DNA of 64,000 nt, taken from Giardia intestinalis (lineage: Eukaryota). This document shows positions 2,115 through 41,934 of the stretch, in pieces. The translations under genes and the position numbers were made by a program. The notes beneath the pieces are model-generated. The model worked only from the letters and a program-made list of their open reading frames with translations. It did no database searches and was not told the origin of the DNA. Position 1 is the first letter of the stretch, and each line of letters starts with the position of its first letter. The stretch lies in NCBI GenBank assembly GCA_000002435.2, contig CM018790.1. One strand, written 5' to 3'.

Positions 2115-3095
2115 ATGCCCGCTACACTCCATGTTGTCACGCCTGGCAAGCTTCCTTTGGGGTCTGTAGCACGCGCAGCCTATGGAATTCGTCGCAGCCC
2201 CATTTATGAAGTCGTAGTTGCGGATAGCCTTGATTACCTCCTTGAGTCTAATTCGACTGCCGAGCAGGTAGACGCCCGAGGGCTACTTTGTCGAGCGGCC
2301 ATAGATTCTCTTACTAAGGTCACTGATGGTCAGCATGTGCGATGCCTATCTGAGCTCCTTCTGCCCTGTACCAGTTGCGATCTTTTATGGCCGGTAACCT
2401 TTGAAGTGTCGCGGCTGATGACGCTTGAGCATGCTTCCGCCGTTTTTGACAAGAAGGTAAAGAACCTCCTGGCCTCGGAAACGCTTCTGCCATGCATTAT
2501 CTCCGCTCTGGCAAAGACCCACCAACGCTATCCTATCCGGGTCTGTGTCAGCGAATACCCTACCTTGGATGGCTTTCTGAATGCTCCTACAAAGCCATGT
2601 CTCCTTCCAACGGGGCAATTGTTTAGGACAACTCGGGGGAGGATAGTTAGCAAAACACTAACACCCCTTCCATATCTTAGACAGAATCCCGTGACAGAAG
2701 TGGACAAGGAGCACTCAACCATATACTGCACAGATACACCGGCAGAGATAGCAAAGAAGATCGCAAAAGCTTATTGCCAGCCCACAGACATAGAGAACAA
2801 CCCTCTTTTGGCATACCTAGAGGAGATTGTATTCCCGTATAGCAAACTAGTCACAGGGAAACCTATACACATAAATGCCGTAGTTTATAATGATATGGAA
2901 GAAGTCCGAAGAGCGTTCCGTGAGGATAAGATCACGCCCCAGTGTCTGAAGAAGGTTATGGCAGAGAAATTAGGGGAGATCGTCTCGCGTATCCAGGGCT
3001 TCCCACAGTATGCTGAGGCTGAGGCACTACTGAAGACCGTGCTCGATAAGGAGAAGCAGGAAAAGAAGAGTAAGAAAGACAAGAAGCAAAAGTGA
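2115..3095 (+). CDS. Hypothetical protein with a lysine-rich C-terminal tail (KEKQEKKSKKDKKQK)
   Basis: The ORF track gives 2076-3095. The first ATG (2076) would overlap the divergent WD40 gene start by 7 nt. The second ATG (2115, MPATLHV...) lies directly after the AT-rich initiator, so I prefer it. I recognised no domain. Confidence 0.45.
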   Translation: MPATLHVVTPGKLPLGSVARAAYGIRRSPIYEVVVADSLDYLLESNSTAEQVDARGLLCRAAIDSLTKVTDGQHVRCLSELLLPCTSCDLLWPVTFEVSRLMTLEHASAVFDKKVKNLLASETLLPCIISALAKTHQRYPIRVCVSEYPTLDGFLNAPTKPCLLPTGQLFRTTRGRIVSKTLTPLPYLRQNPVTEVDKEHSTIYCTDTPAEIAKKIAKAYCQPTDIENNPLLAYLEEIVFPYSKLVTGKPIHINAVVYNDMEEVRRAFREDKITPQCLKKVMAEKLGEIVSRIQGFPQYAEAEALLKTVLDKEKQEKKSKKDKKQK

Positions 3096-3096
3096 A

Positions 3097-4527
3097 TCAC
3101 TCGTTGAAGATGGCCCACAAGGACCGAGATTCTTGCTCGTGCTCGTACTCATAGTCCACCTCGCTACTGACAGCGTTGTGGAGGCTCGACTCGCTCCGGA
3201 AAGAGTCTAGTGCCCCTCCTTCCAAGTGGCTAGCGAGGTCTTCACGAATACTGGCAGGCAATCCGCGATCGTTGCGCACGCTTTCTGCAGCAGTGAGCCC
3301 GCTATGCTCAGCTCGCTGTCTTTTACGTTGCACAGAAGCATCCTCTTCTGGATCGACAGTTCCCTCTCTTGCTGCTTGAAGAGCGCGATAAAAGTCTCCG
3401 TGCTGAGCATCAAATAACTGAAGCTTTGCTTGCCTGACACCTGCAGGAGCAATATATTCCTGAATAGAGATGTCGCTTGCCAGACTCAAATCAATTGGTA
3501 TGGACATTGCAGTCGCCTGTGCGCCCTGAGCTAAAAGCGATCCTAGACTTGCCAACTGTTCGTGTGCTGCAGATTCTGCATAGTGCCGATGGTAAAGATG
3601 TCTGCGTACAAGAGATGGGGGCCGTACGTCTACGCCCTCAAGGTCGAGGTCTACATTACGAAGAACATCACCAATGGTTAGCTTGGCGAATAGCTCTGAT
3701 GATTGCATTTCTTGGAGACGGCGCGCAATGGTGTCTGGAGAACAAAAGACACAGCGGGAAATGCGATGAATGGGTATCCCATAGTTTAGTAACTTAAGCG
3801 CAACAAAAATACTGGCGCCTAACAAGCCTGATGGAAGCCTGCCGGTGTGAATATTAATAGCGGTAGAGGCCTTAAGAATGTACTTAGATACAACAAGAGT
3901 ATGCTCACGGAGCTGATCCACAGATGTTATGTGGATATTAGCGAAAAGCATACAATCTCTGTTGTCTTGAAATGCAGTCGTGAACTCTTCTTTCAGAATA
4001 CTATCCACAAACCGTGGTAACAGTGATTCAAGATCCTGGTAAGGTAGCTTGATATTATATTGACGCAGAAATGGCTGTATGTACTTGTTGAGCGTGAAAA
4101 CAGAAACGTTAAGAGCATCTGCATAGTCTATCAGAAGATGGGAGAGGTTGTGCTGTCGCCCCACAATGTAAAGAAGAGCTGCTGCCAAGAGATTGTTTCT
4201 CCGTCCTCTCGTTGCTTTGTCGCGCAGACAATTGGCATAGTAGTCGCTGGCTTTCCGAACAAGCTCCATTGGTAAATTTAGAATCATTGCAATTGTCTCT
4301 AGCTCCTTGGAAAAGTGTTTGATTGCAAGACTGCGAGCCGTGGAGGAGGTGTTAGCGCTTATGAAGTTCCCCATCACGGTGGACACACCATTTTGATCTT
4401 GGTAGATTAGATCATTGACAATGAGAGTGTCCATGATTACAAGCCCACAGTTACCACAGAACACTTTTGCTTGGCCCTCGTCAGTTATCGTGCTATTGGA
4501 AAGGCAAAATGGACATGAAATGGACAT
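3097..4527 (-). CDS. TFIIB-related transcription factor (TFIIB/BRF family; the C-terminal extension suggests a Pol III Brf1-like factor)
   Basis: The N-terminus has a zinc ribbon (CPFC...x17...CGNCG). This is followed by a TFIIB-type cyclin-fold core (LLAAALLYIVGRQHNLSHLLIDYADALNVSVFTLNKYI). The 476-aa length, with about 150 extra C-terminal residues, fits BRF. Confidence 0.6.
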   Translation of the reverse strand: MSISCPFCLSNSTITDEGQAKVFCGNCGLVIMDTLIVNDLIYQDQNGVSTVMGNFISANTSSTARSLAIKHFSKELETIAMILNLPMELVRKASDYYANCLRDKATRGRRNNLLAAALLYIVGRQHNLSHLLIDYADALNVSVFTLNKYIQPFLRQYNIKLPYQDLESLLPRFVDSILKEEFTTAFQDNRDCMLFANIHITSVDQLREHTLVVSKYILKASTAINIHTGRLPSGLLGASIFVALKLLNYGIPIHRISRCVFCSPDTIARRLQEMQSSELFAKLTIGDVLRNVDLDLEGVDVRPPSLVRRHLYHRHYAESAAHEQLASLGSLLAQGAQATAMSIPIDLSLASDISIQEYIAPAGVRQAKLQLFDAQHGDFYRALQAAREGTVDPEEDASVQRKRQRAEHSGLTAAESVRNDRGLPASIREDLASHLEGGALDSFRSESSLHNAVSSEVDYEYEHEQESRSLWAIFNE

Positions 4528-4592
4528 TCTTTTTTGATTGTTTACTCTGTCCCAGCAGATGATGATTCACTCCACCCAGCGGTTGCTCCCAG

Positions 4593-4877
4593 TGCTGTGC
4601 TGCCAGATTTACCTGCGGGTATGGTCTAGCAATCTTGTGGGTAAATTGTCGCTTAATTCCTAGCCAATCCGGAGACGACTGTTGGTCATTGATAACATAA
4701 CAAGAGGGTCCTCTCCAGTGATACATCCAGGGCCCGGTACATTTCTCTTCCGTTTCATGGGCGTGTGCTCTGTCTGGATGTGCACGTCAGCCTACCTAGG
4801 ATTCAACTTACTTGCCCATCTGCGTCGTCCACCAGTGATTTCTCTCCTTGGTCTACCGCTCTGATGGTGGAGGGTCT
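4593..4877 (+). repeat. Copy A of a diverged dispersed repeat (about 72% identical to 10064-10358). It is the leading part of a roughly 950 bp ORF-free block, 4528-5495
   Basis: I aligned the two copies by eye. Shared blocks include ccggagacgactgttggtcattgataacataac versus ccggagacaaaggttggttgtggatgatataac, and cgtcgtccaccagtgatttctctccttggtct versus catcgtccaccagtggcgcctctccttggtct. No reading frame is conserved between the copies. Confidence 0.5.
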
Positions 4878-5495
4878 TAACAGTTGATGTTCCTGGACCG
4901 ACGCCTCGACAGACCGAAGCATCACCCAAGTGTGCTGTGCAGATGGACCAGCCCACACGTCACCGAGCCAGACGCACTGCACAGGGTGAGCGTCGACATG
5001 ATCTCGCGCTGGATGGTGGAGCACCTCTGCGATCCGTGAGCAGAGGGTCATACTTCTCCCCCGACACCACCGCATAGGAGCTGTCCACTGGCATCCACGA
5101 ATGCGTACTATGACTCCAAGATAGAGGCGCACGGGGAGCGCACCTCCGATCATACTCGGGACCGATGCTCGCTTCATGAGAAGACGAAGAGGCACCCGAG
5201 GAACGGGGTAGATACCCGGGGTCGCGGTGTGCAATCTCCGTCGTAGAGCATCAGCACCACAAAGCTACTCCGGAGTGCATGGCCAGAGTCAACTGCTCTG
5301 AGGCCAGATCGCCGCGACAGACGCAAGGCCCGAGACAGCGGGTGCTCAATAGATGTCAGACGATAGCTGACCCAAGCCAGTCAGAGAGAAGAGACGCCCC
5401 GGAGCGCATAGTGGAGCACCCAACGGCTCCCAGGCGGGATGCACAAGGCTCTTCTCCAGAGTGGGCGGCATCCGAGCTTCGGACTCTGGACGGGT

Positions 5496-7633
5496 TTACT
5501 CGGACAGGAGCTGGCAAGCCGACATTGTTGAAACAGAGTAGATCTCGTTTGGGAGGATGCCTACTATCTCCATGCGATCCTTCTTCTTAGCGATATTGAG
5601 GGCAGTGGTACCGGGCGAGTGACCATGGCAGCTGCAGGTTGTCTTCAGATCTTTCTCGTTTTCCTTAAGAAGTCTTGCACACTCCACGGTGTTACTATAT
5701 GCCGCACTCATAAGGGCGATCTCCCTTGGTCGTTTGCATGCCGCCTTCCTCCTTCATTAGGAGCCTGACGCACTCTGGATGATCATTGCACACCGTCCAT
5801 GTGAGGACAGTCTGATGCTCGTTGTTCCTTATGCCAGTCTCCTGCTCGAGTAGCTCTACGATTCCTTCGTGCCCTCGTGCTGCTGCATACATGAGCTCCG
5901 TCCACCCTGAGATACTGCTCTCATACTCCATCAAAAGCTCAACGTGCCCAATATAGTCCACCAGGGGGTCATTGGAACGGTCGCACCGTGCCGCGAATAC
6001 GAGAGCGGCCCAACCGCCTACTTTCTCTCCCTTTTCGTGCTCTGCTAGCAGTTCTACTATTTCTGCGTATCCATTGCCGCAGCCATCATCAGAGCTGTTC
6101 CTTTGCGCATGTACCATCCGCTTCTTGTGACCTCTTTGTATGTTTTCCTCCCCCTCTGGATGGGTAAGAGTGCTTTTACAGCCCCCGCGTCGTTTCTATT
6201 GACAGCTCGCATGAGCGCCGTGACGCCGTTCTCATCGGTTGGGTCGATGGCCTCCACCACGGTTCCATGTCCTGCCTCTGCCGCAATCACCAAGGCCGTC
6301 TTGCCTTCGCTGCCGATCCGGTCCTTCTCATATGGGACCAGAAGGGAGGCAGCTCTTGCATAGTCCTCCTCTGTGGCGATCATCAGGTAGTCCAGCCATT
6401 CTTGTCCTGGAGACCGTTCTCCTCCCCAACAAGCAACTCGACGGGACTGATGCGCCCCTGCTCGTCGCGCTGACCAACACCGAGTCTTTCTTCAAGCAGC
6501 ATCCAGACGGTCTCCGTGCTATTCGTATGCGCGGCACGCATCAGCCCGGGCAACAAAAAGAGGCTGGACTGAGGGTCAGTCGTGTTCATCCTGTCATCGA
6601 ACTGTGCAAGCTTATTCTCCAGTGCCTTAATCATAGCTAGATGTTCCTTGCACTGATCTTCAAGTGCGTCGATCTAGTGGATTTAGTCTTAACATCCTCT
6701 TCCAGCAGCGCGATCCTGGCGTTAGCGCCATTCAGCGCAGCCTCCAAGGATCTGCACCTGTACCTCAGCATCACGCACTGACCCCCCAGCTCACTAACTG
6801 GGATGTCGAATGTAGCGAGCGTCTCGTGCAGCTCCCTGGCCGTCGGCCTCCTTCCAGGATCCAGCACGAATATCCCCTCCAGAACATTCTGCATGAAGCC
6901 ATCAGTGACACCGCTCAGGTCCGGCCTCCATCCATCAACGAAGACCTCTGCTGGCTCCTTGCCCCCCAAGAAGTTTGGTCTCCTCAGAGTAGTAAGTTCA
7001 TAAATGATGACCCCGAGGCTCCACACGTCGGAAGCATGGCTGGTCTCATTACGGAGGAGAATCTCGGGGGCCATGTATACTGCCGTGCCTGCAATGGTGC
7101 TCCCGCATCTCAGGGCGTCCTTACAGAGGCCGAAGTCGGCGATGATGAAGTGTTCACCATCTGCGCTGACGAGGACGTTCGCAAGCTTGAGGTCGCGGTG
7201 GACGAGGCCCTTGTAGGGGCGACCGTCGGCACCCACTCCGCTGAGGCCGTGGAGGTAGGCGAGGGCGGCGGCGACCTGCTTCATGACAGAGAGGATCACA
7301 GCGATAGGGACGGGGATCTTCCTTCGTTTGTGCTCGGTGAGGAGGCGCTCAAGGGTCTTGTCGTGCCGGTCCGTGACGACGTAGATGAGGCCCTCGTCTT
7401 CAATCACTTGATGATACTTGAGGACCCGGGTGAAAGATGTTAAGAAGGGCGGCCAGCCTACGCTTAATAGCATCCACACCGTGCTGATCCAGACCGTCGA
7501 GCCGGATCTCCTTCACAGTGAGGTGGGGGCATCCCTTGGGAGAGTAGATAACACTGAAGGCCCCCGCTGAGCACGGGGATGCCACCAGCGCCCATCGGCT
7601 CTGCAAAGCCGCTAACTGCACTGTTACTAGCAA
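5496..7633 (-). pseudogene. NEK-family protein kinase with C-terminal ankyrin repeats, broken by at least 5 frameshifts
   Basis: Six consecutive minus-strand ORF fragments (7400-7633, 6637-7479, 6383-6634, 6057-6383, 5695-6117, 5496-5711) lie in frames 1,0,1,2,0,2. The kinase N-lobe (GAFSVIY...VKEIRL...HPG) shifts frame into subdomains V-XI (YVVTD...HRDLKLANVLV...DFGLC...YMAPE). Ankyrin-like repeats follow (TALVIAAEAGHGTVVEAI, TELMYAAARGHEGIVELL). Confidence 0.55.
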
Positions 7634-8263
7634 CTCCTAGGGCGCCCTCTGCGGTGGCTGGGACAGGGAGTGGAGTCAACAGCCATCGCTAATCTTAACG
7701 CAATCCGGAGCCACCCTTTGGAGTGGCCTTGGCTACTGCCCGAGCAAGGCGCCCAGTGTGAGCTGCCGATGACAGGCCAAGGAGGGCATACTCGCGGCTC
7801 GTATGGTCCTAAGCAGGTCGGATTCTGGAGGCTAACACGGAGCGCCCCGACAAAACACGCCGACTGGGGACCACACTGAGCTCTGGATGCATCAATAGAG
7901 AGAAGCTCTTAGTATGTTATCCACAACCAGACCTCGTCTCCGGACGGCTGGGAAGTGAGCGCGGCTTACCCGTGGGACCTCTGAGCGCACCTGCAGGCGG
8001 CCCCAGCGATACAGTGACGGCAATGTACAGGAGTGCACCCCGAGCAATCACTCCACAAGAGAGGTGCGATTTGAGTCTGGCCCTCACTGGTCCTGTTCCT
8101 ATGGAAGTCAGAGAGAACTACACTATCAGCTGGCCTCCAGTGAGCGTGCTCCTATCTTGTCCTTCTTCAGTCCAACTGGTTAAGGGAGCAAGAGCAGCTG
8201 TCTCTCACTGCTCGCGGCAACACATCAGCCTGACAGAAGAGCAGTGGCATACTAACCCGGCTA

Positions 8264-10027
8264 ATGTTGGTAGGATTTCTCCTAGTTTGTGCAACAGTGC
8301 TGGCAAAGGACAGCGGGAAGGACACATGCTTCCCGGGATACACCCTCAACCCCACCACGAAGAAGTGCGACAGGAACTCCGCGCCGTGCGAGGTCGAGGG
8401 CTGTGATGTCTGCGAGGAAAGCAACCCCCAGCAGTGCAAGACGTGCGGCTCAGGCTACACCCTCAACCCCACCACGAAGAAGTGCGACAGGAACTCCGCG
8501 CCGTGCGAGGTCGAGGGCTGTGATGTCTGCGAGGAAAGCAACCCCCAGCAGTGCAAGACGTGCGGCTCAGGCTACACCCTCAACCCCACCACGAAGAAGT
8601 GCGACAGGAACTCCGCGCCGTGCGAGGTCGAGGGCTGTGATGTCTGCGAGGAAAGCAACCCCCAGCAGTGCAAGACGTGCGGCTCAGGCTACACCCTCAA
8701 CCCCACCACGAAGAAGTGCGACAGGAACTCCGCGCCGTGCGAGGTCGAGGGCTGTGATGTCTGCGAGGAAAGCAACCCCCAGCAGTGCAAGACGTGCGGC
8801 TCAGGCTACACCCTCAACCCCACCACGAAGAAGTGCGACAGGAACTCCGCGCCGTGCGAGGTCGAGGGCTGTGATGTCTGCGAGGAAAGCAACCCCCAGC
8901 AGTGCAAGACGTGCGGCTCAGGCTACACCCTCAACCCCACCACGAAGAAGTGCGACAGGAACTCCGCGCCGTGCGAGGTCGAGGGCTGTGATGTCTGCGA
9001 GGAAAGCAACCCCCAGCAGTGCAAGACGTGCGGCTCAGGCTACACCCTCAACCCCACCACGAAGAAGTGCGACAGGAACTCCGCGCCGTGCGATACTCCC
9101 AACTGCAAGGCCTGCGACAACCCCAAAACAGACAACGAAATCTGCACTGAATGTAATGATAACAATTATCTCACTCCAACCAGTCAGTGCGTATCTGACT
9201 GCACGACCCTCAAGGGCTACTACGGAGACGATAGTGGCAAAAAGACATGCAAGAGGTGCAACGATGCGTGCGCAGAGTGTAAGGGTGAGGGTGCTGATAA
9301 GTGTACGGCCTGCCCTGCTGGGAAGATGCTTCAGTATACAGATGCTGATACTCCTGCCAATGGGGGCACGTGCATGAACCAGTGCAGCGTGAGCCCTGCA
9401 AACGATGGATGCGCAGAGTGTGGGGCCCAAATAGGAGGAACTGCATATTGCTCAAAGTGCAAGAACACTCAACAGGCACCACTGGATGGCAACTGTGCGG
9501 CCAATACGCGAACACGATTTTGCACTACGGTGAGTAATGGAGCATGCACTCAATGTGAAAATAACTACTTCCTCAAAGATGGCGGTTGCTATCAAACAAA
9601 TAGACAGCCTGGTAAACAAGTGTGCACCCAAGCTAACGGAGGAAAGTGTCAGACATGTGCCAATGGCTTAGCAGCAACTGATGGCAACTGTGCAGAATGT
9701 CATCCTACTTGTGCTACGTGCTCGACTGCAGGTACGGCTGACAAGTGTAAGACCTGTGCCACTGGGTATTACAAGGAAAACGGTAGCGATACCACTACTG
9801 GGTTATGCAAGAAGTGCTCAGAGAAGATCTCTGGATGCAAGCAATGTGTGTCATCATCTGGCAGTTCAGTCATATGTTTAGAATCAGAAGTAGGCACTGG
9901 TGGAAGCGTCAACAAGAGCGGCCTCTCCACGGGGGCCATCGCGGGGATCTCCGTTGCTGTGATTGTTGTCGTCGGAGGGCTTGTCGGATTCCTTTGCTGG
10001 TGGTTCCTCTGCCGCGGGAAGGCGTAG
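8264..10027 (+). CDS. vsp: Variant-specific surface protein (VSP)
   Basis: It has a signal peptide (MLVGFLLVCATVLA) and is Cys-rich, with many CXXC motifs and a GGCY motif. The C-terminus has a transmembrane helix and the canonical tail GFLCWWFLCRGKA-stop. It contains internal tandem repeats. Confidence 0.85.
   Translation: MLVGFLLVCATVLAKDSGKDTCFPGYTLNPTTKKCDRNSAPCEVEGCDVCEESNPQQCKTCGSGYTLNPTTKKCDRNSAPCEVEGCDVCEESNPQQCKTCGSGYTLNPTTKKCDRNSAPCEVEGCDVCEESNPQQCKTCGSGYTLNPTTKKCDRNSAPCEVEGCDVCEESNPQQCKTCGSGYTLNPTTKKCDRNSAPCEVEGCDVCEESNPQQCKTCGSGYTLNPTTKKCDRNSAPCEVEGCDVCEESNPQQCKTCGSGYTLNPTTKKCDRNSAPCDTPNCKACDNPKTDNEICTECNDNNYLTPTSQCVSDCTTLKGYYGDDSGKKTCKRCNDACAECKGEGADKCTACPAGKMLQYTDADTPANGGTCMNQCSVSPANDGCAECGAQIGGTAYCSKCKNTQQAPLDGNCAANTRTRFCTTVSNGACTQCENNYFLKDGGCYQTNRQPGKQVCTQANGGKCQTCANGLAATDGNCAECHPTCATCSTAGTADKCKTCATGYYKENGSDTTTGLCKKCSEKISGCKQCVSSSGSSVICLESEVGTGGSVNKSGLSTGAIAGISVAVIVVVGGLVGFLCWWFLCRGKA
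8342..9091 (+). repeat. Tandem repeat of a 117-bp unit, about 6.4 copies, apparently identical, inside the VSP coding sequence. Each unit encodes 39 aa (TLNPTTKKCDRNSAPCEVEGCDVCEESNPQQCKTCGSGY)
   Basis: I read the period directly from the sequence and from the protein repeats. The seventh copy is truncated after ...RNSAPC. Confidence 0.85.
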
Positions 10028-10063
10028 ACTTAGGTAGTAAACGCATTACTTTATGTAGCTTAT

Positions 10064-10358
10064 GTGGATGTGCTACCGGGTGCTTGTAGGTACGATCCAG
10101 AAATCTCACGAATAAATTCTCGCTCCTTTGGCCGTGTCCGGAGACAAAGGTTGGTTGTGGATGATATAACGAGGAGCTCCTCTCTTTTAGTATATCTAAA
10201 ACCTGGCACCTTCCCTGGTCGCTCCGCAGGGGTGTGCTCAGCTGAGTGTGCACACCCGGGAATGCTTGCTCAGTCGGCCTGGGATTCCGCTTACTCACCA
10301 TGTACATCGTCCACCAGTGGCGCCTCTCCTTGGTCTTCCTTCACGGTGGGTGAAGCCC
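10064..10358 (+). repeat. Copy B of the diverged dispersed repeat (same orientation as copy A). It is the leading part of a roughly 950 bp ORF-poor block, 10028-10977
   Basis: See copy A. Copy B carries a roughly 15-nt insertion relative to A. The 3' part (10360-10760) is GC-rich with no credible ORF. Confidence 0.5.
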
Positions 10359-10977
10359 GGGTCGCCGTCTTTTTTAGATGCCCCGTCTGTCAGGGGCTGC
10401 CACCGGGCTCTCCGCTGGCTGGGCCCTCGGTGTCCGTCCGGCTGTGTCCCGGTCCAACTGGTGGGTAGAGGCAGGGGGATTGCTGGGGCAGTGAGGACCG
10501 AGTGGGTGGTGTCCATCTGTGCCCCTGGGCTCTCGGTGGGCCATTGGGGCGGTGGGTGATTCTCGCTCTGTTTGCTGCAGTGGTTGTGTCTGATCTCCAG
10601 CCCGCGCTGCACGAGATATAAGCCAGGCACCGACGATCACACTAGGTCCCTGGTCGTCCCTCTGCAAGAGTAGAGGGGAGCCCCTGTCTGCTGTCACAAC
10701 TACCCCACCCCCAGGCGGGTCCGGCAGCACCACAATGAAATCTTCAGCATGCACATTTTCTGCTCGTGTCATCGTAGTTTAGATTGTGCATATCTTAGTT
10801 ATACTAAACTCTACTTCATCAGCCACTAGAACTAGCATAGCTTGGAGCAGCGCTTATTTACTAACTATACTGATGTGTGCTTTACAGCTACACAGTAATC
10901 CACATAGAATACTAATCCATGTCAAGTTGCAAACTACTAAGGTTAGCGCTCATACTTCTTACGGTCCCTTCATGGCC

Positions 10978-13900
10978 TTAAATATCAGAACTGCCTGTGC
11001 TACACTGCCCAATTGATGTATTGCTACTTGTGACGCCAGAGGCTTTATTGACATGCATTGTGGATGGAACAGTGGATTGTATTGCTAACAGATTTGCCAA
11101 GGGAGCCGATTGGGCTATATCGGAAGCACTATGAGTGGAAGACGTATCTGAAATACTTGAAGGAGCCTTTGCTTCAACCACGTCTGTAGTTATCTTAATA
11201 GTTGATGTCTTTTTCCGTGAGTCTACATGTGATGGTGTAGACGGTGAGCTGGTATTTGATTCCGCTATGGGGTCGTCTAAATTCGCTGGTCTCTGGTCAG
11301 TACTATTGCCAAGAAAGCACAACTTTGGTATTATGGGGTGTGCACTCATTGTTTTCGACTGAAGATCTGTATCATCGTCGTCTTGGTTAACTAAGCGAAT
11401 GCGTGTGATTGGTGTCTTGATACCTGCGGACTCTTTCGGAAGGGACTGCAAATTTAGTGCAGGAATTACTAGAGGGCTCCGTGGAGAAGTGGGGCGCAGC
11501 TGTGGCTTAGCATCGCTACCCGCTGGAGTCCCTGTCGAAGTGCTACTTTCTCCTTTCACAGTGAAATCATTCCATCGCGTCAGTTCGTACTGGATTGATG
11601 CATTTATCCAATGCAGTGGAAGATTGATGCGCCCTATCAAGAGAGTCCTAAGTCTCCGCAAGAAGAGACCCCTGGGGAAGCTGGATTCCTGTTTGCTAAG
11701 AACACACGGGTCCCATGAAATATGGCGCCCATACCGGTAAAGAAAACAATAGTGTGCGGTTAGTAGTTGAATGCGGCACAGATTGAAGCCTTGCATATCC
11801 ACCTCAGGCCGTGTACACTTGCAACAACAGCACATATATTGTGAGGTCCCATGACCGATATCTGGAAAGATAGTAGGCGGGGGGTATGAGTATCTGTACT
11901 CTGGAGTAGAGCCGACTAACGACTCTTGCATGCTGTTAATAGGCTCGTCTGCAGAAAAGTGGAGCGTAGAAAGAGTAGGAGGACGGGCCTGTTGCTGTTG
12001 ATTGGATGGCGTAATTGTGCTGTTATTAGTAACAATACTTGTTGTGCGTAGCTTGCTTAAGGATCCTGTTGTACGAGTTTGGCGTTTATTACGCATTAGT
12101 ATGATATCTGAAGCATTCTGCTGGTCATCTTCATTGTAGGGCTCATAGTAGAAGCTGTTATTCCTACTCACTATACTATGTTCTCCGTGAGGTTCATCAT
12201 CGACATTGTCGTCATCGATAGTTGTGCAAATCGAGTCATCAAAGATGCTTGTAAGACCTCCTACATCCTTTAGCTCTTTGCGGATCTGAGACGCCACAAT
12301 ACAATCCTCCAAAGAGCGTGTAAACATCCTATCCCGATATAAAAAGCGTTGCTCAGCCCCCATATCCTTGAAAATCTCTGGATTCCCTGTTTCAGTCGAG
12401 CTTTCTCGTTCCTTAAGACTGGTCTGCTTCTGGTGTCCTTCTATTCCTGCGAGTATTTTGCCTATAGCTGTTCTATTGTATAACTTGTTCCGCTGGATAT
12501 ACTTGTCATTCAATGCGGAATCAAGGGGCTTCTCCGGTTGCTCATCAACTACGTCTTGCTCTCTTTCAGGCTTAATACTACCAGAGAGATCAACGCTCTT
12601 CTGAGACATAGCGCTACTTATTGAGGCTTCTTTTGCATCCAGTTCTCGTAGTACCGGCGAGCTCGGCTCTGGCCTGGCATGAAATTGTTGTTGTTGTTGT
12701 TGTTGTTGCTGTTGCTGTTGAGGCGATTGATTTGGTGTGGACTTAGTATTCCGCGTGGGAGAAAGCACGCAGCTTTGTGATGTAGCTAGAGTGGAGAACT
12801 GGAAGGCGTTTCCCGGTAAACTACGTGCAGACGGTCTCTGTGAAAACGCCTTTGACTTCACCTGATTATGATCTGCAAGTGGAGCAGAGGTCATACTGAT
12901 ATGTTCAATTTCAGAAATTTCTTGAATATCCAGTTTGATCCCTGAAAGCGTCTTTGTGGACAGAGGAGGGTTGGAGTACAAGGGGTTAGAGAGCGCCTTA
13001 ATCGGAACCGATGCAGACGATTTGTGTTCTGAGAACCCAGCAGTTAATTGATTGAACGGGGAGCTTGCGCGACTGCTTTCTAATGACTCAGTTAAAGAAG
13101 AGCTAGCACTTTGCGCACTAATGTCAGAGTGCTGAAGCATATGCGGTTGACTTTGCACTTCTGCCACGGGAAAAAGAGGCCCAGGCTGGAAACTATTAAT
13201 ATCATCTTTTAGATAGTATTCTACGTCTCTCTCATTGCCCAGGGTCTCTGAGAAAGACCTGGTAAGCATCTGATACCATAGTCGCGTTCCCAATTCATAA
13301 AAGGACGATCCTACCGTTAGCGTAGTTAATCCATCAATTACGTTTTGCAACTGCATTCGCTTAAGCTTTGCAATGATGCTTCTAAGCGTGGGGCACTTTC
13401 TGATGGTGTTGAGGGTCTCCTGATCATCCAAATCGAAAAACGAGTTGGCATTATGGGCGTTTCCGTGAAGCAGACGAAGAGAAAACTCGACAGCATTCTG
13501 GGAGCTCCCAATATAAACATCCAAAGGGGATATCTTTTCAGACCAATCAAAATTATGAATATGGAGAATATTTTTCTCATCGACAAGGGCGTGAAGTACA
13601 TTTTCAAAGGAGTCGGACAGTATGGAGTCAAGGGTGTTCGACTCAGGTCCCTGTGAGCCATTCCCAGCCACACCATACTCTTGTCTCATAGAGGCATAAG
13701 CGTCGAGAAGAGGATGCTCAAAGCGGGCCGTGCTTTTGCTATCCAGTGAGGACACCCGCAAGTCGGGAGCTGAGAGAGAAACCTTGAGCGGTGGCGCAGA
13801 AGAGATTGGAGCCTGTTCGTGGGTTAGACTGCGCTGATATTTCTTGAGAAGCTTCTTGATGTAGTTGAAAATATGCTTACGACGGGGATAGAGGGATGCA

Positions 13901-16900
13901 GCCGACGACGCTTCAGCGACGAATTTCGAAGAATTAATAATCGACAGCAGTTGCTTGCTCCTTGTTCGTTCATTCAAAACAGGCGACGGAAGCCTGTATA
14001 GTAAGCTATCGGGGCTTCCATCATATAGTGATTCTGAGAGTACCCGTTCCAACAACGTTTTGACATGACGTGCCTCGTCCATTAGAGATACCGAGTTGCG
14101 CCTCACATTATCAGTGTGGAAAGTCGGCGAGGCTTTGGAGACCGTTTTCCGGTGTTCAAATATCCGGTCAACCATACAAATACCTGTGGATTTTCTGACC
14201 ACGTGTGCCTGTGCAATCTCAGGCACAGTAATATATACCGACTTATTAAACTCTGTGTCCGACAATAAATCAGATTGCCCTTCAGAGTCGAGACTAAAGG
14301 ACATGTGCCTGTTCAGAACATCACTGCTACTCATTGGACTCTTCGCTCTATTCTTTGAGCACAGCTCTGTTTTTGTTTTAAGCTTTTCTGAAGCGATGAT
14401 GTGGGCATGAGTATTAATCTTCTCCCCACTGGTAAAGTCATCTATGCGGTAACCTGTATGATTGAGCACATCATGTTTGGACTTTCTAAATAGCTTAGAA
14501 GAGAAGAGGGCCAGTGTGTTAGCCAGCAGAGGAATATCGGTGCACGTATAGATCATACTGTTGTCAATGGTGCTTGCAGTGATACACTTGCTATTATTAG
14601 CCAGCACGTATTGTCTGCGGCGCATAATTATCAGCATGTGAAACCGTCGGAGCTGATGGTAGTCTCTCTTCGCTTCTCTCCACAACGCACGGATGTTCCC
14701 AGACTTACTGGTCGCTACGGAGTGTGCGTGAGACAAAACAGAGTGCATCGTCGTTACACTGATGTCCGAAGTCCCCTTTGCCGGAATGCTCATTGGCAGC
14801 TTAAATTGTCTTGGATTGACAGCAGGATGATACATGCATTCAAACAGCGTGTATCTGTGACTTGGAATCTCGTCTAGAAGACCACACAGCAAGTCGGTAA
14901 TCAGCAATCCAAAGGTTCCACAGAGAGCAAAGGCTTCTTGGCTATACCTGTACAGAGGGGTTCGTCTGACCAAGCCTGTGAGTGAATGAAAAAGCATAAC
15001 TCCTGTTTGCCAAGCGTCTGCATGTACAGCTGAAAACAGGGAATGAGCCCTGTGTGGGTCGTGGTCACTACACGTCTGCATAACAGCGCGAGACTCGGGA
15101 GAAAGAATAGTCGGAGTCCCTGTGGAACTGCTAATAAAGTAGGTATTCCTTGGCATAGCCGGAAACGTGTTGATCTGTCTAATAGATGAGAGGTAGGATT
15201 GTAGTGCCTGCCCAACCTTGTTAGTCTCTATCGTCTCCTGAATGAAGTCTTCAATGCGGCTGATAGTGGAGAGAAGCGCAGCGTCTCGTTGTGACAGTGA
15301 GCTATTTGAAGTCTTAATTGAGCAATCAATGGCTGGCACCAACAAGGAGTTGTCAGCAGGGAAATCTGCGTCTAGATGGGTATGACCTTTGCATGTTTTC
15401 TCTGCAAGTCCAGTTCCATCGGGTGTTAAGTCAGTCAATTTCAAGCTCAGCGCGTCAGTGTGAAAAGCTTTTTGGAAGGTTGCCGCATGCGAATCATCGT
15501 CGAGCAAAGGAATGTCTACACAAGGCTCTAAGTTGCCTAAAAAGGCGTCCTTTTGGTCATCCAAGGAAAGAACCAGAGTAAGGCAAGAAGAGTGAAGCGC
15601 TCTTGTCACAGAACTTTTGTCACTAGTACGTGCAATATGAGCCGTATCAATGCTTGCATTGGGCTTTGCAGCAGTAACTGTTGCTTGTCGTAAGCTGAGA
15701 GTAGTATCCTTGCATGAAGAGTTGTTTGGTTTAATACTTATTTTGTCAAAAATAGGCTCCGACATATCAAATGATTGTGTCTCGTAGATTCCAGACATCC
15801 TGCATATCCCTATACTTCCATTAAGGGTGTCCATATCTATTTGTGAGGGCTTCAAAGACTGCTGTGAGTCGTCCAGCTTAGCTGCCTCAGTGCATATGGC
15901 AGTGCCCTCTTTGACTAAGATGTCAGCATTGAAGCTAAAGGCCGACGAAACTAAGTCGGCCTCTCTCCTAGATGAAGCATGCACACAGTCAGAATCCATA
16001 GAGGCTACTACATCATGACCCAACAAAAGGCTGCCTTCGTCTTCTTGTGGTAAAATACGTTGCCGCACAAGGTCATTAAAAAAGCATGTAAAGCTCTTGC
16101 GAAGAAGAGAAAGGTGTCTATTGTATATGCTTTTTAGTGTCTCTAGGACGGTCTGTGCTGTTGGTAGTCTGACCCCCTCTTCCTCGAGGATGATTGCAGT
16201 ATCAAAGTCACTGATCTTTGCACGGTAGGGTGCAGTATCCGAGTCCCCTAACAGATAGTACGTTATATCTGATGACTCTTTTAGTGATTGAAGTCTGTAC
16301 CGAGATCCGCTTGGAAGCAGCAAAGGAGAAAGAACGTTGTCATTGAGGCGAGAGGATATACGTGTAGGCCCTCTGGGCATAACAGTGGGCGGATTGGCGG
16401 CGGTTGGTAGTGCATTTTGTAAAGGAAGCTTCAAAGAAAGTGGGGGTATATTGTACCTATCTTTAGGGTCCCTCCTCAGCGTATTCTCAATTGGGTTGCT
16501 ATGAGATGGATCACTACTCAGAGCAGTACTTGCCAAGGGAGTGCTGGACTGAGATTGTACGGTCCCAACTGCAAAGTCACCTATTGTGCCTGAGGTGCTA
16601 GTAAAGAACAGGTCGGTCGTTCTGGGGACCTTCCGTGGAAGTAGCTTACTTGCAGGAGGTATCGGTGTCTTGAAATTGCTTTGAAGATCGGTGGTGATGA
16701 TGATGTTCTCTAATTTGATATCTTGGTGTACAACGTTGCAGAAGTGCATGTAGCAGAGAGCATCGACAACCTGATAGAAGAGTATCATGATCTTCTTTAG
16801 ATCTGCTGTGCGTACAACCTCCTGGAGGGTCCCCCCGTCACAGTACTCTATTATGAAAACGAAGTTATCATCATAGTTCATGGTGCACCGACCTGTGTTC

Positions 16901-17715
16901 TGATAGCGTGGAGTCAGGTTGGAGTCCAATTGGGAGCTACGGGCCGAGTATTGTTTGAGCTTACTGCCAGCCGATGGCATACGTCTATGGGCAAGCTCCG
17001 ATCCCTGGGTCAATGGTTTAGCAATACCATTAAGAGCCATCGGATTGTGCAAAAGAGGCTGCAAATCGGAGACAAGCTCTGGTTGTAGCATCCCCTTGGC
17101 GTTTGAGAGTTGATCAATAATAGATTGATACTTGCAGGGAAGCTCACATATCAGGTTGACCTGCTGTGCAATAGACAGGATTGTCTGAACCCACGGGGGC
17201 AAGCTTCCCGGTGTTACGGCGTACTGACCGGCAAACGTAGAACCAGGAATTAGGGACTCCATAGAGTTCTCCACAGAGCAAACATCAGCGTAAATAGGGT
17301 GATGCATCACCTCAATGAGGTTAAGAATAGATGGGTGTGCGGTGGTCAAGAAATCCATGACCCGGGAGCAATTCCAAAGGAATTTGTCCGCAGATTCCTG
17401 GGTTAAGAGCTTACGCCTCAGAGAAGTTCGGTTGATCATGCGCATGGCTGCTTTTTGCTCTGTAAGCGGGTTATGGCATAGTCTCACGTTGGCATAGGCA
17501 CCCCGACCGATTGTTCTCTGTATGATCCACTCGTTAATGCACACGTTCCCCTGGGCTGTCGTTGTAACCCAGATCCGATCCTTGACTGGAACTCGAAGCA
17601 GTCCTGGCAGAAATGGAGCAGAGATGCCTGTCAAAAGGTGGAAGACGCCTGTCGCTGACTCTGACGTACTAGATGTGCTGTCAGTACTTGCATGGTTCAC
17701 TTCATGCAAGGCCAT
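10978..17715 (-). CDS. Giant (2245 aa) protein with a split, divergent protein-kinase-like domain near the N-terminus and a long low-complexity region containing polyQ
   Basis: It has a glycine-loop-like IGRGAYANV...AMRMI. About 200 aa later there is HFCNVVHQDIKLENIII (HRD-like catalytic loop) and GDFAVG (DFG-like). The Q13 tract is encoded by a (TTG/CTG)n run at 12685-12723 on the plus strand. Confidence 0.55.
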   Translation of the reverse strand: MALHEVNHASTDSTSSTSESATGVFHLLTGISAPFLPGLLRVPVKDRIWVTTTAQGNVCINEWIIQRTIGRGAYANVRLCHNPLTEQKAAMRMINRTSLRRKLLTQESADKFLWNCSRVMDFLTTAHPSILNLIEVMHHPIYADVCSVENSMESLIPGSTFAGQYAVTPGSLPPWVQTILSIAQQVNLICELPCKYQSIIDQLSNAKGMLQPELVSDLQPLLHNPMALNGIAKPLTQGSELAHRRMPSAGSKLKQYSARSSQLDSNLTPRYQNTGRCTMNYDDNFVFIIEYCDGGTLQEVVRTADLKKIMILFYQVVDALCYMHFCNVVHQDIKLENIIITTDLQSNFKTPIPPASKLLPRKVPRTTDLFFTSTSGTIGDFAVGTVQSQSSTPLASTALSSDPSHSNPIENTLRRDPKDRYNIPPLSLKLPLQNALPTAANPPTVMPRGPTRISSRLNDNVLSPLLLPSGSRYRLQSLKESSDITYYLLGDSDTAPYRAKISDFDTAIILEEEGVRLPTAQTVLETLKSIYNRHLSLLRKSFTCFFNDLVRQRILPQEDEGSLLLGHDVVASMDSDCVHASSRREADLVSSAFSFNADILVKEGTAICTEAAKLDDSQQSLKPSQIDMDTLNGSIGICRMSGIYETQSFDMSEPIFDKISIKPNNSSCKDTTLSLRQATVTAAKPNASIDTAHIARTSDKSSVTRALHSSCLTLVLSLDDQKDAFLGNLEPCVDIPLLDDDSHAATFQKAFHTDALSLKLTDLTPDGTGLAEKTCKGHTHLDADFPADNSLLVPAIDCSIKTSNSSLSQRDAALLSTISRIEDFIQETIETNKVGQALQSYLSSIRQINTFPAMPRNTYFISSSTGTPTILSPESRAVMQTCSDHDPHRAHSLFSAVHADAWQTGVMLFHSLTGLVRRTPLYRYSQEAFALCGTFGLLITDLLCGLLDEIPSHRYTLFECMYHPAVNPRQFKLPMSIPAKGTSDISVTTMHSVLSHAHSVATSKSGNIRALWREAKRDYHQLRRFHMLIIMRRRQYVLANNSKCITASTIDNSMIYTCTDIPLLANTLALFSSKLFRKSKHDVLNHTGYRIDDFTSGEKINTHAHIIASEKLKTKTELCSKNRAKSPMSSSDVLNRHMSFSLDSEGQSDLLSDTEFNKSVYITVPEIAQAHVVRKSTGICMVDRIFEHRKTVSKASPTFHTDNVRRNSVSLMDEARHVKTLLERVLSESLYDGSPDSLLYRLPSPVLNERTRSKQLLSIINSSKFVAEASSAASLYPRRKHIFNYIKKLLKKYQRSLTHEQAPISSAPPLKVSLSAPDLRVSSLDSKSTARFEHPLLDAYASMRQEYGVAGNGSQGPESNTLDSILSDSFENVLHALVDEKNILHIHNFDWSEKISPLDVYIGSSQNAVEFSLRLLHGNAHNANSFFDLDDQETLNTIRKCPTLRSIIAKLKRMQLQNVIDGLTTLTVGSSFYELGTRLWYQMLTRSFSETLGNERDVEYYLKDDINSFQPGPLFPVAEVQSQPHMLQHSDISAQSASSSLTESLESSRASSPFNQLTAGFSEHKSSASVPIKALSNPLYSNPPLSTKTLSGIKLDIQEISEIEHISMTSAPLADHNQVKSKAFSQRPSARSLPGNAFQFSTLATSQSCVLSPTRNTKSTPNQSPQQQQQQQQQQQQFHARPEPSSPVLRELDAKEASISSAMSQKSVDLSGSIKPEREQDVVDEQPEKPLDSALNDKYIQRNKLYNRTAIGKILAGIEGHQKQTSLKERESSTETGNPEIFKDMGAEQRFLYRDRMFTRSLEDCIVASQIRKELKDVGGLTSIFDDSICTTIDDDNVDDEPHGEHSIVSRNNSFYYEPYNEDDQQNASDIILMRNKRQTRTTGSLSKLRTTSIVTNNSTITPSNQQQQARPPTLSTLHFSADEPINSMQESLVGSTPEYRYSYPPPTIFPDIGHGTSQYMCCCCKCTRPEVDMQGFNLCRIQLLTAHYCFLYRYGRHISWDPCVLSKQESSFPRGLFLRRLRTLLIGRINLPLHWINASIQYELTRWNDFTVKGESSTSTGTPAGSDAKPQLRPTSPRSPLVIPALNLQSLPKESAGIKTPITRIRLVNQDDDDTDLQSKTMSAHPIIPKLCFLGNSTDQRPANLDDPIAESNTSSPSTPSHVDSRKKTSTIKITTDVVEAKAPSSISDTSSTHSASDIAQSAPLANLLAIQSTVPSTMHVNKASGVTSSNTSIGQCSTGSSDI

Positions 17716-35709: not shown

Positions 35710-38700
35710 CTAAGTCAATCTTAAAACTGGAAGAAGCATCTCAGACACTATGGGGGTTTGGTCTTCCGGTAAATCATTCGCCAAGAGGTCATCGGGGAGG
35801 TCGCTTGACAATAGGCTGCCATATTCTCGTGCTGCGCGGAATATTGGGTCCAGTATTCTCTTGCGCAAGAACCCGTCGATAAAGCACTCCACAGGGAGGG
35901 AGGAAATTACCGACAGAAGCACAACTGGTTCGTTTCCAAAGCTCACAAGTTGCCTGACAACCTTGTGCTTTAGCTGCAGTGCATTCCTCATGAACACAAG
36001 TCCGCACAGGAGCGCTGGGCTGAGACTAGTGTACATGCAATCATGCACCACCGCTTCAAATGGATACACGTTCGCCTGAAAAATGACCTGAGGAGATCCT
36101 GTGATGCGCAGTGCAGAGAGCATGAGCGTTGGCTCCTTGCTTTTTGTGCAGTAAGTGGTGCCAACTCCATATGAATTGGGCTTGCTGGCCATGCCCTCAT
36201 CTGCCGACACAATATAGTATCGTGGAAAACAGATGCAATATGGGGTCTGCATATTCACGTAGAGAGACGGTTCATCTGCAAATAGAGCGCCGGGTAGGGG
36301 CAGAACTGAAAGAGAATGGGACATCTCTAACAGGACGACTTCATCCCTTGAGAGAGCATCTATGAAGACAGTGGGAAACTTTGTGACGAGATGAGCAAGC
36401 AGGGTAAAGCACTCTGCGACTATCGACTGCAGATCGACCGACAAGACGTGGTCTTCAACGCCCCTCTGGTGCCGAGAAAACAGCTGAGAGGATGTCAGGT
36501 CGCCCATATCGATGTTATCGGTTATGTGACGGGCAAAGGACCTTAGACGGAAGTGTTTCCTCTCCTTAGAGTGGCTTGCAAAAGATGTGGACGATAGAAG
36601 AAGTTGGGAAAGACAGCTAATAGCTGCCTTACATAGACACGATAAGCCTGGCCCAAAGTACGAGTTAAAACCTTCTTGGTCATATAGTAGAAAGCTGTCG
36701 ATTGCTATGCGCAAAGCCTGCTGAACTGCAGAAAAATTATCGTGCACTATTGCCAGCTCAGTGCAGCAAGCATCACTACGGGTCAAGAATGACTCGCTCG
36801 GTATTATCGGTATACTTATCCGGGCCCATACGCCATCGACTATAAACCTGTCCTTGAAGAATGCATCCAATATGGCTGCTGCCCGCACATTGGCTGTCAG
36901 GTGGACCATCTTAAGTGCTACGGAGAGAAAGCTGTACACCAATGCCTCTTTACATACACCAGGAGTCTTATTCAGATACCTCGTAATGTTGGTTAACGGT
37001 ACAGAGGTGGCAGTATAGATTGATTTGAGCTCCGGGTGCTCATGGCATTGTGGGAGAAAGATTGCGCTAAAGCGGAGATAGGTAGATGCAAGAAAGAGTG
37101 CCAGAGTAGAGGCATCTATTAGGAGGCTTATCTCATCAGTGGAATAACCCCCTCGTTCTAAAAGGGGTATTATCTCTTGGGCTGCAGCAACGCACTTATG
37201 CAAGTAGTTGGTAGTGAGTGCTGCGATTGACAGCATAACTGCGTACGTATATGTATGAATTTCGGAGTGATCGTGCCCTATGATGGCAATGGTGTCTGAG
37301 AAGATGGACTCTGCGTTGTTAGCGTCCTTGAGCTTGTAGCGGCTGCCAGGCCAGGATAGCAGATACTGTACCCAAGCCTGCTTATCTATTGGTTCGGAAG
37401 TTGTTGCTCTATCTCTAGTTGCTTCTTCTTGCGCTTGAACAGGAGCCCCTACAAGAATCTTCTCTGCACGAATCACCACTTTGGAGGTATATTCTCGAAG
37501 AGGAAAGGCTGTGTCAGTATAGAATCTCGAGACATTCCTGATGGCCACCATTGCCAACTGTTGCAGTGCTATCCACTGCAGCGTGAGTGTTTCATGCAAC
37601 TCGATGCTTTCAGTCAAAGCCGTGGCCTCAGAAAGGCTATGAATTGATGCAGATATCTTTCCATTGGTATGCTCAGTAGAAGCAGCCCCATGTATGCCAT
37701 AGTTTATGCTCGGAGGCCATACGGTATCAACCTGTTTGTAAACCAGCTCACTGCCCTGCACAGTAAGCGACCCCGATAGAAGTTGGGGGCTGCTATCCTT
37801 GGAGTCTCGCGTGGACTCCTTCATATTTTCCTTGTAGCGTGTAGTCGACGAGAGTGCCTTTTCTTTTATGCGCTTGTTGAACTCCTCTCGTCTGTTGTGT
37901 ATGAGCTCGTACCTTGCCTTGAGGCTCTTCATGGTTTGCTCAGCGTACTGTGCACGTCTTTGGCTGGCGAGAGTAACTCGCTGGATGCTATTTTTCGCAG
38001 CCTCCTGGACCGCCAGCAGCTGAGATTCCCGTAAGACCTGTGCACGGGTTTGCCGTTCAGTAAACTGCGTCTGCAAAAGAGCATTCTCCTCCTCTAGTTG
38101 CTTTCGAACCTGTGCTGTCTTTGTGATGACCTCATCTAACTCCTTTTTCAGCCTAGTGTTCCTGGTCTTTAGAAGGCTGTTCCGTCTCTTCTCGGCTTCT
38201 TTGTACTTTGCCTCCAGCTTAGCTTTTGAAGTATCTAAGTCCACTGTGGACCCAGTAACCCATTTATTCGGGCTGAATGGTGCTCGCAGCTGTGAAGAAG
38301 TTGGGGACCCCGGAAGACTAGTTACTCTCTTGGGTGTTGTGGGGGCCTTCCTGGACTCGGTTGATGGAAAGTCTATCTCTAGGTACTCAAAGGCCGGGGC
38401 CGTGACTTGCCTTTCACTCTTGTCTGATGCCTCGGCGTCCGACCCATTGAAGTACCTGAAGGGAGGAATGGCAGTTTCAACAGGCTGGAGTCCTGGTGGT
38501 GGAAAGGAAAAGACATTTGCAGAGGACGACGGTTGCCCCAGGATGGGTATACTCGGGATGGGAGGAAGCGGCTGAGTTAACCCCGGCGGAGGCAGAAGCG
38601 GTATCTGGAAAGGAAATTGGTTGGATGATGTAGAGATAGCAGGATATAGAGGCAGCCCTGTGGAAAAGAAAGGAGGATAACCCATAGCAGAAAAAGCATC

Positions 38701-39390: not shown

Positions 39391-40206
39391 ATGGCATCCA
39401 AAGAGCCCTCGCGCAAGCAACAGATGACAGCCCAGGAGGCCGCGATTTCCGCATTAAAGGGCGTTCCGCTTGGAGAGAAGGGCGAGGCTCTTCTACAAGA
39501 TCTTAGAAGCAACGAGAAGTGTGCTGCAGCAGCACTTGCACTTCTCAGGATCTTGTCTGCACAGGTCGCCGAGGAAGACCAGCATGCAGAGGCACTGTCT
39601 ATGTTACGAGAGTTGATAGATTCTTCTGGCAGGGGATCCTTCGAGGTTTCAAGCGGAAAGATAGCTATGGATAACGTTTTAGGAACTAGCACCTATTCGG
39701 GCGCTGCGCTTGATGGCACATGGAATTTCCTCATAGATGACAACGAGGACGGGGACGCACGTGTCTGTAGATGCTATCACTCCTCGTACCCCCTGCTGGA
39801 CGCAGAGAAGGAGGCGGATAGGACGGCAATGGACAAGACCTTTACGGGAGAAGAAACAACCTTGTCCGGAGATCATGGGTTCATGTTCATCTGCGACGGT
39901 GCGGTCCACAATACGGATGAGGCCGTGCCAAAGGACACCGCTATCTGGCTCAAAGGTGACAGAGCGACAAAATGGTATAGCTACCATGCTGCCCTTGCTA
40001 CAGATCTGCTGCTCGTGCATGCGGCGACGGAAAAGCCGTACGGCTTTATGATCGAAATTCCGGATGAGCAGGTTGTCACCGTGCAGAAGGATTCAAACGG
40101 CGTTATTGTTGGCTTCTACTTTGAGACAAGCTACGGGGACGAGGACGATGAGGACGACTTCGAGGGCTCACTTGCTTCTGAAGGCTCTGACGAGGAGGCA
40201 AACTAA
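39391..40206 (+). CDS. Hypothetical protein with an acidic C-terminal tail (GDEDDEDDFEGS...SDEEAN)
   Basis: It has a strong AT-rich initiator (aaataaatatagtaataaaataaATG). I found no recognisable domain. Confidence 0.5.
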   Translation: MASKEPSRKQQMTAQEAAISALKGVPLGEKGEALLQDLRSNEKCAAAALALLRILSAQVAEEDQHAEALSMLRELIDSSGRGSFEVSSGKIAMDNVLGTSTYSGAALDGTWNFLIDDNEDGDARVCRCYHSSYPLLDAEKEADRTAMDKTFTGEETTLSGDHGFMFICDGAVHNTDEAVPKDTAIWLKGDRATKWYSYHAALATDLLLVHAATEKPYGFMIEIPDEQVVTVQKDSNGVIVGFYFETSYGDEDDEDDFEGSLASEGSDEEAN

Positions 40207-40277
40207 TTCTAAGGTAAATCAAACTCTGTGCGGTGTGTTTACATTACAACCTGCTCTGCTTCCAGACCCGGTTCTGA

Positions 40278-41873: not shown

Positions 41874-41934
41874 TTATTGACAACCAACGAGAAAAAGGAG
41901 GACTCGCATATCGAGCCTTGTTTGGCGGGCTGCA

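Follow-up and report, generated by a model that had tools for sequence, protein, structure and literature searches.

Homology blocks beside antigen cassettes are found in Trypanosoma brucei, as the 70-bp repeats and conserved 3′ ends of VSG genes, and in Borrelia hermsii, as the upstream and downstream homology sequences of vmp genes. Giardia has its own variable surface antigens, the VSPs, which lie in non-syntenic, gene-poor, and fast-changing regions; what moves or replaces them is poorly defined. Here, we describe a noncoding repeat of ~340 base pairs (bp), which we call R, and the G-rich tail of ~260 bp that usually follows it, in a 64,000-nucleotide stretch of Giardia intestinalis DNA (isolate WB, ATCC 50803; GenBank assembly GCA_000002435.2, contig CM018790.1; hereafter, the window). 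We show by sequence comparison that R and its tail are a common 3′-flanking sequence of a subset of Giardia VSPs. They probably form a VSP 3′-flank repeat family that has spread by duplication and ectopic gene conversion and that provides downstream homology for the exchange of VSP cassettes.

Parts of VSP flanks have been described before. An extended polyadenylation signal, ACTTAGGTAGT[AG]AA[CT]GC, lies 0 to 15 bp past the VSP stop codon (Jerlström-Hultqvist et al. 2010, PMC3091692). Canonical R units open exactly with this motif. The known signal, however, is only 16 to 17 nucleotides (nt) long and is present at essentially all VSPs, whereas R and tail extend ~600 bp further, follow some VSPs only, and include orphan copies that lack the motif (R_A and R_C, below). 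Near-identical flanks of inverted VSP pairs have also been published (Adam et al. 2010, PMC2996952), as have long, similar, gene-poor, and variant-rich VSP surroundings (PMC7000408; bioRxiv 10.1101/2022.03.07.483299); gene-poor, variant-rich regions around VSPs are described by Xu et al. 2020. The flanks of duplicated pairs resemble those studied here in that the flank is co-duplicated with the VSP up to an abrupt divergence, in a gene-poor, variable setting with NEK and ankyrin genes nearby. In contrast, the published cases are near-identical inverted pairs within one genome, while copies of R are 55 to 87% identical, mosaic, and spread over unrelated VSPs, and the VSP in this window is solitary. 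We found no description in the literature of a ~340-bp unit plus tail as a dispersed family.

Like the T. brucei and B. hermsii blocks, R is a conserved noncoding block fixed beside divergent antigen genes, with exchange boundaries inside. Unlike R, those blocks serve antigenic switching into an expression site. VSP switching in Giardia is regarded as epigenetic or post-transcriptional, and the exchange at R is seen between strains over evolutionary time only. A role for R in VSP switching would not be expected from current Giardia models.

A repeat family behind VSP genes

The window holds three copies of R, arranged around a single VSP gene:

4554 to 4898, + strand: R_A, an orphan copy of the repeat (nhmmer, E = 1e-85)
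7702 to 8039, − strand: R_C, an inverted orphan copy between a NEK pseudogene and the VSP start (nhmmer, E = 7e-65; profile positions 15 to 345)
8264 to 10027, + strand: VSP gene vsp101 (GL50803_115047), 587 amino acids (aa), with a TAATGTT initiator (Pfam VSP, E = 5e-87)
10028 to 10044, + strand: extended VSP polyadenylation signal ACTTAGGTAGTAAACGC, read from the sequence (motif known from PMC3091692)
10027 to 10381, + strand: R_B, a canonical copy (nhmmer, E = 7e-84), with a run of six T residues (T6) at 10370 to 10375
10376 to ~10640, + strand: G-rich tail, which makes up the second part of the VSP 3′ flank and is homologous to loci L023, L028, L027, and L024

Further members of the family were sought through the chance open reading frame (ORF) that runs across R_B (10064 to 10465). 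Its translation was searched with HMMER against 1.84 billion representative proteins, followed by a profile search. The HMMER search gave ten matches. Most are short, unnamed ORFs whose frames are shifted against each other and which evidently represent translated R DNA; two of the ten, P0058 and P0059, are of low complexity and look unrelated. The profile search recovered R ORFs together with their sources, all of them Giardia contigs in European Nucleotide Archive (ENA) metagenome assemblies. Two exact-pattern scans of Joint Genome Institute (JGI) metagenome contigs, one with the R core of the three window copies and one with a block of six family members, gave no match. The source DNA fetched from ENA comprises five further VSP loci:

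L023: partial VSP, then R at 687 to 1029, then the same 2245-aa giant gene as in the window; the orthologous locus of a relative
L024: VSP at 3611 to 5695, then R at 5695 to 6033
L025/L026: VSP, then two tandem units, at L026 1571 to 1906 (L026u1) and 1903 to 2233 (L026u2)
L027: VSP at 2849 to 4369, then R at 4373 to 4706 (L027a), with a second copy at 5979 to 6268 (L027b)
L028: VSP end at 1006, then R at 1006 to 1332

At all five loci, R starts 0 to 4 nt past the VSP stop codon and is always in the orientation of the gene. The canonical units (R_B, L023, L024, L026u1, L027a, and L028) open exactly with the extended polyadenylation signal ACTTAGGTAGTAAAC and close with the T6 run. The motif ACTTAGGTAGTRAAYGC is found within 0 to 15 bp after the VSP stop, and that of R_B abuts the stop codon itself (10025 to 10027). 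Counting vsp101, the same block stands in the same place and orientation at six VSP loci with different VSP bodies. After R, a G-rich tail homologous to that of the window is present in L023, L024, L027, and L028. Since R follows VSPs likewise at five other loci, R_B plus tail is the ordinary 3′ flank of vsp101. The original prediction, made from the window sequence, had raised a noncoding element tied to VSP loci as one possibility, and the position of R directly after the VSP stop and polyadenylation signal bears this out.

Two sub-types of R can be distinguished. Type 1 adjoins the VSP, and type 2, which has the 5′ start GATGATTYACTCCACCCASCGG, is seen in L026u2, in L027b, and in the first ~100 bp of R_A. 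Tandem R units also occur (L026, 1571 to 2233), and a single VSP can have two units in the 1.6 kb that follow it (L027, 4373 to 4706 and 5979 to 6268); the second unit is always of type 2.

The repeat had been proposed from two blocks, A (4528 to 5495) and B (10028 to 10977), that were thought to share ~290 bp at ~72% identity. The similarity is real. Local alignment pairs 4596 to 4857 with 10069 to 10339 at a score of 60, compared with 12.4 ± 1.5 (maximum 21; z = 32) for 200 dinucleotide shuffles. Its level is slightly lower than proposed, with 176 matches in 278 columns, or 69% identity without gaps and 63% with gaps. Both copies stand, but the unit is longer (~340 bp by the family profile), and over this length R_A and R_B are 59 to 60% identical from end to end. 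The inverted third copy, R_C, had been missed; it was first seen at ~7998 to 7875 and extends to 8039 to 7702 in the profile (z = 16 to 21 against R_A and R_B). A fourth copy in the window, suggested by BLAST at 37879 to 37955, failed in alignment and profile search and was dropped. In tblastx comparisons of the other loci with the island (the segment between the conserved neighbor genes described below), the shared parts were limited to R, the tail, the VSP, and the NEK pseudogene. The remainder of each block is GC-rich, as had been stated (0.58 to 0.64). In block B this remainder belongs to the R family, because of its tail homology, whereas that of block A (4899 to 5490) matches nothing: it shows no similarity to any fetched locus, and its ORF has no Pfam match.

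R_A and R_B differ by indels of 1, 2, and 15 nt, and stops occur in all six frames in at least one copy, so no reading frame is kept in R, in agreement with the original prediction. The blocks had also been called ORF-free; they do hold mechanical ORFs of more than 100 aa, but none has a Pfam match. It is very improbable that R arose by decay from a protein-coding gene. Short stretches do translate alike in several copies (e.g., RRRLLVIDNITRGSS and RRQRLVVDDITRSSS), and gene callers predict ORFs over many copies. However, these ORFs lie in different frames among copies, with 1- to 2-nt indels shifting the frame; R has no Pfam match, and no named or recognizable protein was matched among the 1.84 billion representatives.

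Exchange at the vsp101 locus

The copies of R lie in an island between two conserved genes, with the order R_A (+), NEK pseudogene (−), R_C (−), VSP (+), R_B (+) from 5′ to 3′. Its surroundings and remaining parts are as follows:

3097 to 4527, − strand: TFIIB-related factor BRF gene, the conserved left neighbor (Pfam TFIIB and Zn_Ribbon_TF)
4528 to 4558: BRF-proximal 31 bp common to WB and P15, the left edge of the WB-specific segment
4559 to 10728: segment present in WB and absent from P15, which has ~330 bp of unrelated GC-rich DNA instead
4899 to 5490: GC-rich remainder of block A, ~590 bp (GC 0.58 to 0.60), between R_A and the end of the NEK pseudogene
5553 to 7621, − strand: NEK kinase/ankyrin-repeat pseudogene with several frameshifts (Pfam Pkinase and Ank; tblastn)
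10978 to 17715, − strand: giant 2245-aa gene, the conserved right neighbor (Pkinase match in the P15 ortholog)

This gene content, including BRF, the NEK/ankyrin pseudogene read from 7621 to 5553, and the VSP, is as originally described. The orthologs of BRF are 93% identical in P15 and 89% in an assemblage-B–like contig (L021).

BRF and the giant gene are direct neighbors in P15 (assemblage E; ACVC01000066), with 708 bp between them. Homology between WB and P15 stops at 4558 and resumes at 10729. Thus, the segment from 4559 to 10728, including both R_A and R_B, is present in WB and absent from P15, and the island is isolate-specific, as had been expected. The P15 spacer shows no similarity to blocks A, B, or C in local alignments with shuffles, or to the R and tail profiles. 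The repeat is therefore not confined to two positions in an island that is syntenic everywhere: further VSP loci carry R, and P15 lacks the island.

The clearest evidence of exchange comes from L023, a 65-kb k141 contig. From ~10587 rightward, across the giant gene and its 3′ flank, WB and L023 are 98.4 to 99.1% identical. Left of ~10587, identity falls to 66% in the R core and 54% (aa) in the VSP C-terminus. The R of L023 is 81% identical to that of L024, which follows a different VSP in a different sample, versus 70% to R_B, which occupies the same chromosomal position. The tail of L023 is a mosaic relative to WB, ~96 to 98% identical over 10440 to 10545, with divergent stretches on both sides.

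Other assemblage-A isolates have a similar boundary. L013, L015, and L017 match WB right of 10584, and left of it their tails are 69% identical to WB and 86% to L024. Identity thus drops from ~99% to 66 to 81% at ~10584 to 10587, within the tail, in L023, L013, and L015/L017, some of which are short-read contigs. On the other side of the island, L001 matches WB up to 4834 and then has 12 differences in 56 bp within R_A. As read from these alignments, we show that the VSP and R have together been replaced at the same chromosomal position in close relatives. The idea that recombination moves VSP units is upheld at this locus.

In more than 20 WB-identical isolates, short-read (Logan) contigs break off exactly at 4701 and 10614. 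These ends suggest branch points in the assembly graph, arising from near-identical paralogous copies or from alleles among the four genome copies; an assembler with k = 31 is expected to stop there if the stretches share 31-mers with other copies or alleles.

The original prediction held that R_A and R_B bracket a mobile unit. This part does not stand. vsp101 simply has R_B as its usual 3′ flank, no VSP adjoins the mosaic orphan R_A, and the exchange boundary lies in the tail after R_B rather than at an R_A/R_B crossover. In its strictest form, the idea would make R_A and R_B the termini of a single insertion, formed on arrival of the island as a long target duplication or as an LTR-like (long terminal repeat–like) pair. 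This is the least credible of the explanations we weighed. The two copies do have the same orientation at both ends of an island that P15 lacks. However, they are only 59 to 60% identical, and each has closer relatives elsewhere. A third, inverted copy lies inside the island, the P15 indel edges (4559 and 10728) fall outside both repeats and are asymmetrical to them, and P15 does not retain the single copy of R that a target duplication requires. The interior, a NEK pseudogene and a VSP without reverse transcriptase, also speaks against an LTR pair.

Segment-wise alignment shows R_A to be a mosaic: its 5′ end is of type 2, and its center and 3′ part are of type 1. Its segment 4560 to 4655 is closest to L026u2 (66%), 4656 to 4740 is 87% identical to L026u1, and 4741 to 4870 is 76% identical to L027a, while the same three segments are only 51 to 62% identical to R_B. 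R_A lacks an adjacent VSP and the G-rich tail, and both R_A and R_C lack the extended polyadenylation motif. No VSP 3′ coding remnant was found when one was looked for beside R_A, R_C, or L027b.

Directly before the start codon of BRF lie 20 bp (4528 to 4547; P15 L020 9981 to 10000), TCTTTTTTGATTGTTTACTC, that match the junction of the tandem units in L026, TCTTTTTTGATGATTTACTC, at 18 of 20 positions. Shuffles reached this match in 0 of 500 trials for WB and 1 of 500 for P15. The sequence is present in P15 too, and in WB it lies where the end of a preceding unit would precede R_A. Microhomology that took part in forming the island could account for it, as could a relic of an older R array that was lost in P15.

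Probable spread and possible function of R

Taken with the exchange boundaries, the placement of R suggests the following account. The R family would be copied and reshuffled along with VSP genes, by segmental duplication and by ectopic gene conversion between VSP loci, and R plus tail would supply a downstream stretch of homology within which VSP cassettes swap. The homology would then be a cause of exchange rather than its passenger. The mosaic R_A and the inverted R_C may be orphans from the past assembly of the NEK-pseudogene/VSP island by rounds of duplication, inversion, and replacement, and we infer an order of events of this kind from their structure.

This account refines current views of VSP regions and does not overturn them. 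The locus offers a handle on VSP movement: a ~600-bp flank common to unrelated VSPs, a chromosome-internal site between two housekeeping genes, and recent exchange in lineages that are 98 to 99% identical in the neighboring gene, with a boundary mapped near 10584 to 10587. The R and tail profiles could be used to count flanks in complete assemblies, find VSP exchange breakpoints genome-wide, and correct read-mapping artifacts.

That R is itself a mobile noncoding element, inserting beside VSP 3′ ends in the manner of a miniature inverted-repeat transposable element (MITE), a short interspersed nuclear element (SINE), or a solo LTR, is improbable. R is dispersed, has orphans without a VSP (R_A, R_C, L026u2, and L027b), and occurs in tandem units, all of which such an element could leave. 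However, R lacks terminal inverted repeats, consistent target-site duplications, and a poly(A) tail, its unit end being T6 on its own strand, and no recognizable reverse transcriptase or transposase is among the HMMER matches. Furthermore, in all canonical copies the start of R is fixed to the nucleotide with respect to the VSP polyadenylation signal, which makes co-duplication with the gene simpler than repeated insertion. Particular element classes were rejected individually. For a MITE or other DNA transposon, terminal inverted-repeat scores fell within those of shuffles, and the borders of seven copies gave only chance matches of 4 to 6 nt. A SINE or other non–LTR retroposon, the class represented in Giardia by GilM, GilT, and GilD, was rejected on the T6 end and the lack of a recognizable reverse transcriptase or transposase in the protein searches.

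Several points weigh against spread with VSP genes by duplication and gene conversion. Insertion of the island in the A lineage and its deletion in E both fit the data, because contig L021 ends 127 bp upstream of BRF. The evidence from L001, L013, and L015 is weakened because short-read contigs can be chimeric at repeats. A VSP of strain DH (L022) has the polyadenylation signal and no R; R thus follows some VSPs only and is not needed by VSP genes in general. The known copies are the three in the window and those in the fetched loci, which is not a genome-wide copy number for WB. The additional copies are a biased sample, because they were found through chance ORFs, and, aside from a partial match in L017, all come from metagenome contigs. 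Finally, conservation along R is patchy, with a variance among bins that exceeds 2000 of 2000 permutations, a pattern that selection for some function besides recombination could produce.

Such a function would be compatible with the spread of R alongside VSP genes. If selection maintains R at VSP loci as a cis-acting or transcribed element, it could act as a T/A-run promoter for antisense transcription through the VSP (feeding silencing of the RNA interference type), as an alternative long 3′ untranslated region, or, through its tail, as a G-quadruplex that starts recombination. We regard this as unlikely on the present sequence comparisons. Among the six canonical copies, blocks of 82 to 93% identity (10159 to 10198 and 10314 to 10354) stand out from a background of ~55 to 70%. 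The T6 run followed by a well-conserved block is found in every canonical unit and, when read from the minus strand, looks like the A-rich promoter of BRF. Five of the six tails contain G-quadruplex motifs, and alternative polyadenylation of VSP transcripts has been reported (bioRxiv 10.1101/2022.03.07.483299). Against this, patchy gene conversion can likewise give uneven conservation, the 100-nt downstream regions were without effect on VSP expression (bioRxiv 10.1101/2022.03.07.483299), and some VSPs have no R. The fold energies of R also equal those of shuffles on both strands (z = −0.3 to +0.9). A structured RNA was rejected on the same grounds: R_A and R_B have fold z-scores of −0.26 to +0.85 on both strands, and an Rfam scan of 4000 to 11500 gave only chance-level matches.

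G-quadruplex motifs are linked to recombination in other antigen families, such as Neisseria pilE and Plasmodium var. The tail of R is similar in being G-rich on one strand, with predicted G-quadruplex–type motifs in five of six copies. It differs in that the positions of the motifs are not conserved and the WB motif is a relaxed one only. The 64-kb window has just two relaxed motifs, and that of the tail, at 10527 to 10556, is one of them. In all five tails the motifs are on the VSP-sense strand (e.g., L024 6155 to 6185 and L028 1495 to 1525).

The uneven conservation of R and the G-quadruplex motifs of its tail make a selected function possible, as a T/A-run promoter or a G-quadruplex–triggered break. 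A combined form of this idea is speculative and rather doubtful. R and tail might form a functional module in which the T/A run is promoter-like, the G-quadruplex–prone tail prompts breaks or antisense transcription, and the ~600 bp of homology steer repair to other VSP loci. If true, this would be a built-in means of diversifying the VSP repertoire in Giardia, like the 70-bp repeats of trypanosome VSGs.

Other features of the island and window

The 4.5- to 10.7-kb segment is a GC-rich outlier within the window. A second, milder rise in GC is seen at 40000 to 44000 (0.53 to 0.55, compared with ~0.47 to 0.50 around it), a region with no copy of R.

Intact NEKs align to the NEK/ankyrin gene (tblastn, 7621 to 5553) only through shifting frames, in the order −3, −1, −3, −2, −1, −2, with at least five frame segments, which makes it a pseudogene. 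Its kinase fragment at 6637 to 7479 (−) is 100% identical to XP_001706213.1 (“Kinase, NEK”). The closest NEK homolog, P0005 from strain DH, sits in a different NEK/VSP locus without R.

Motifs resembling the polyadenylation signal (AGTRAAY) occur on the minus strand at 5500, which is 53 nt past the NEK pseudogene, and at 4571 and 4546, where R_A begins in its type-2 form just upstream of the promoter of BRF. AGTAAAT is also present on the minus strand of the L026 unit junction.

The VSP of the window was identified as vsp101 (GL50803_115047, chromosome 2) because it matches the entry that Adam et al. 2010 give for this gene in their supplement (PMC2996952). It contains a 117-bp (39-aa) tandem repeat at 8207 to 9208, with about seven copies that are 98 to 100% identical. 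Six copies are given in the 2010 catalog (PMC2996952), and the number of repeats in vsp101 may thus vary between assemblies or alleles.

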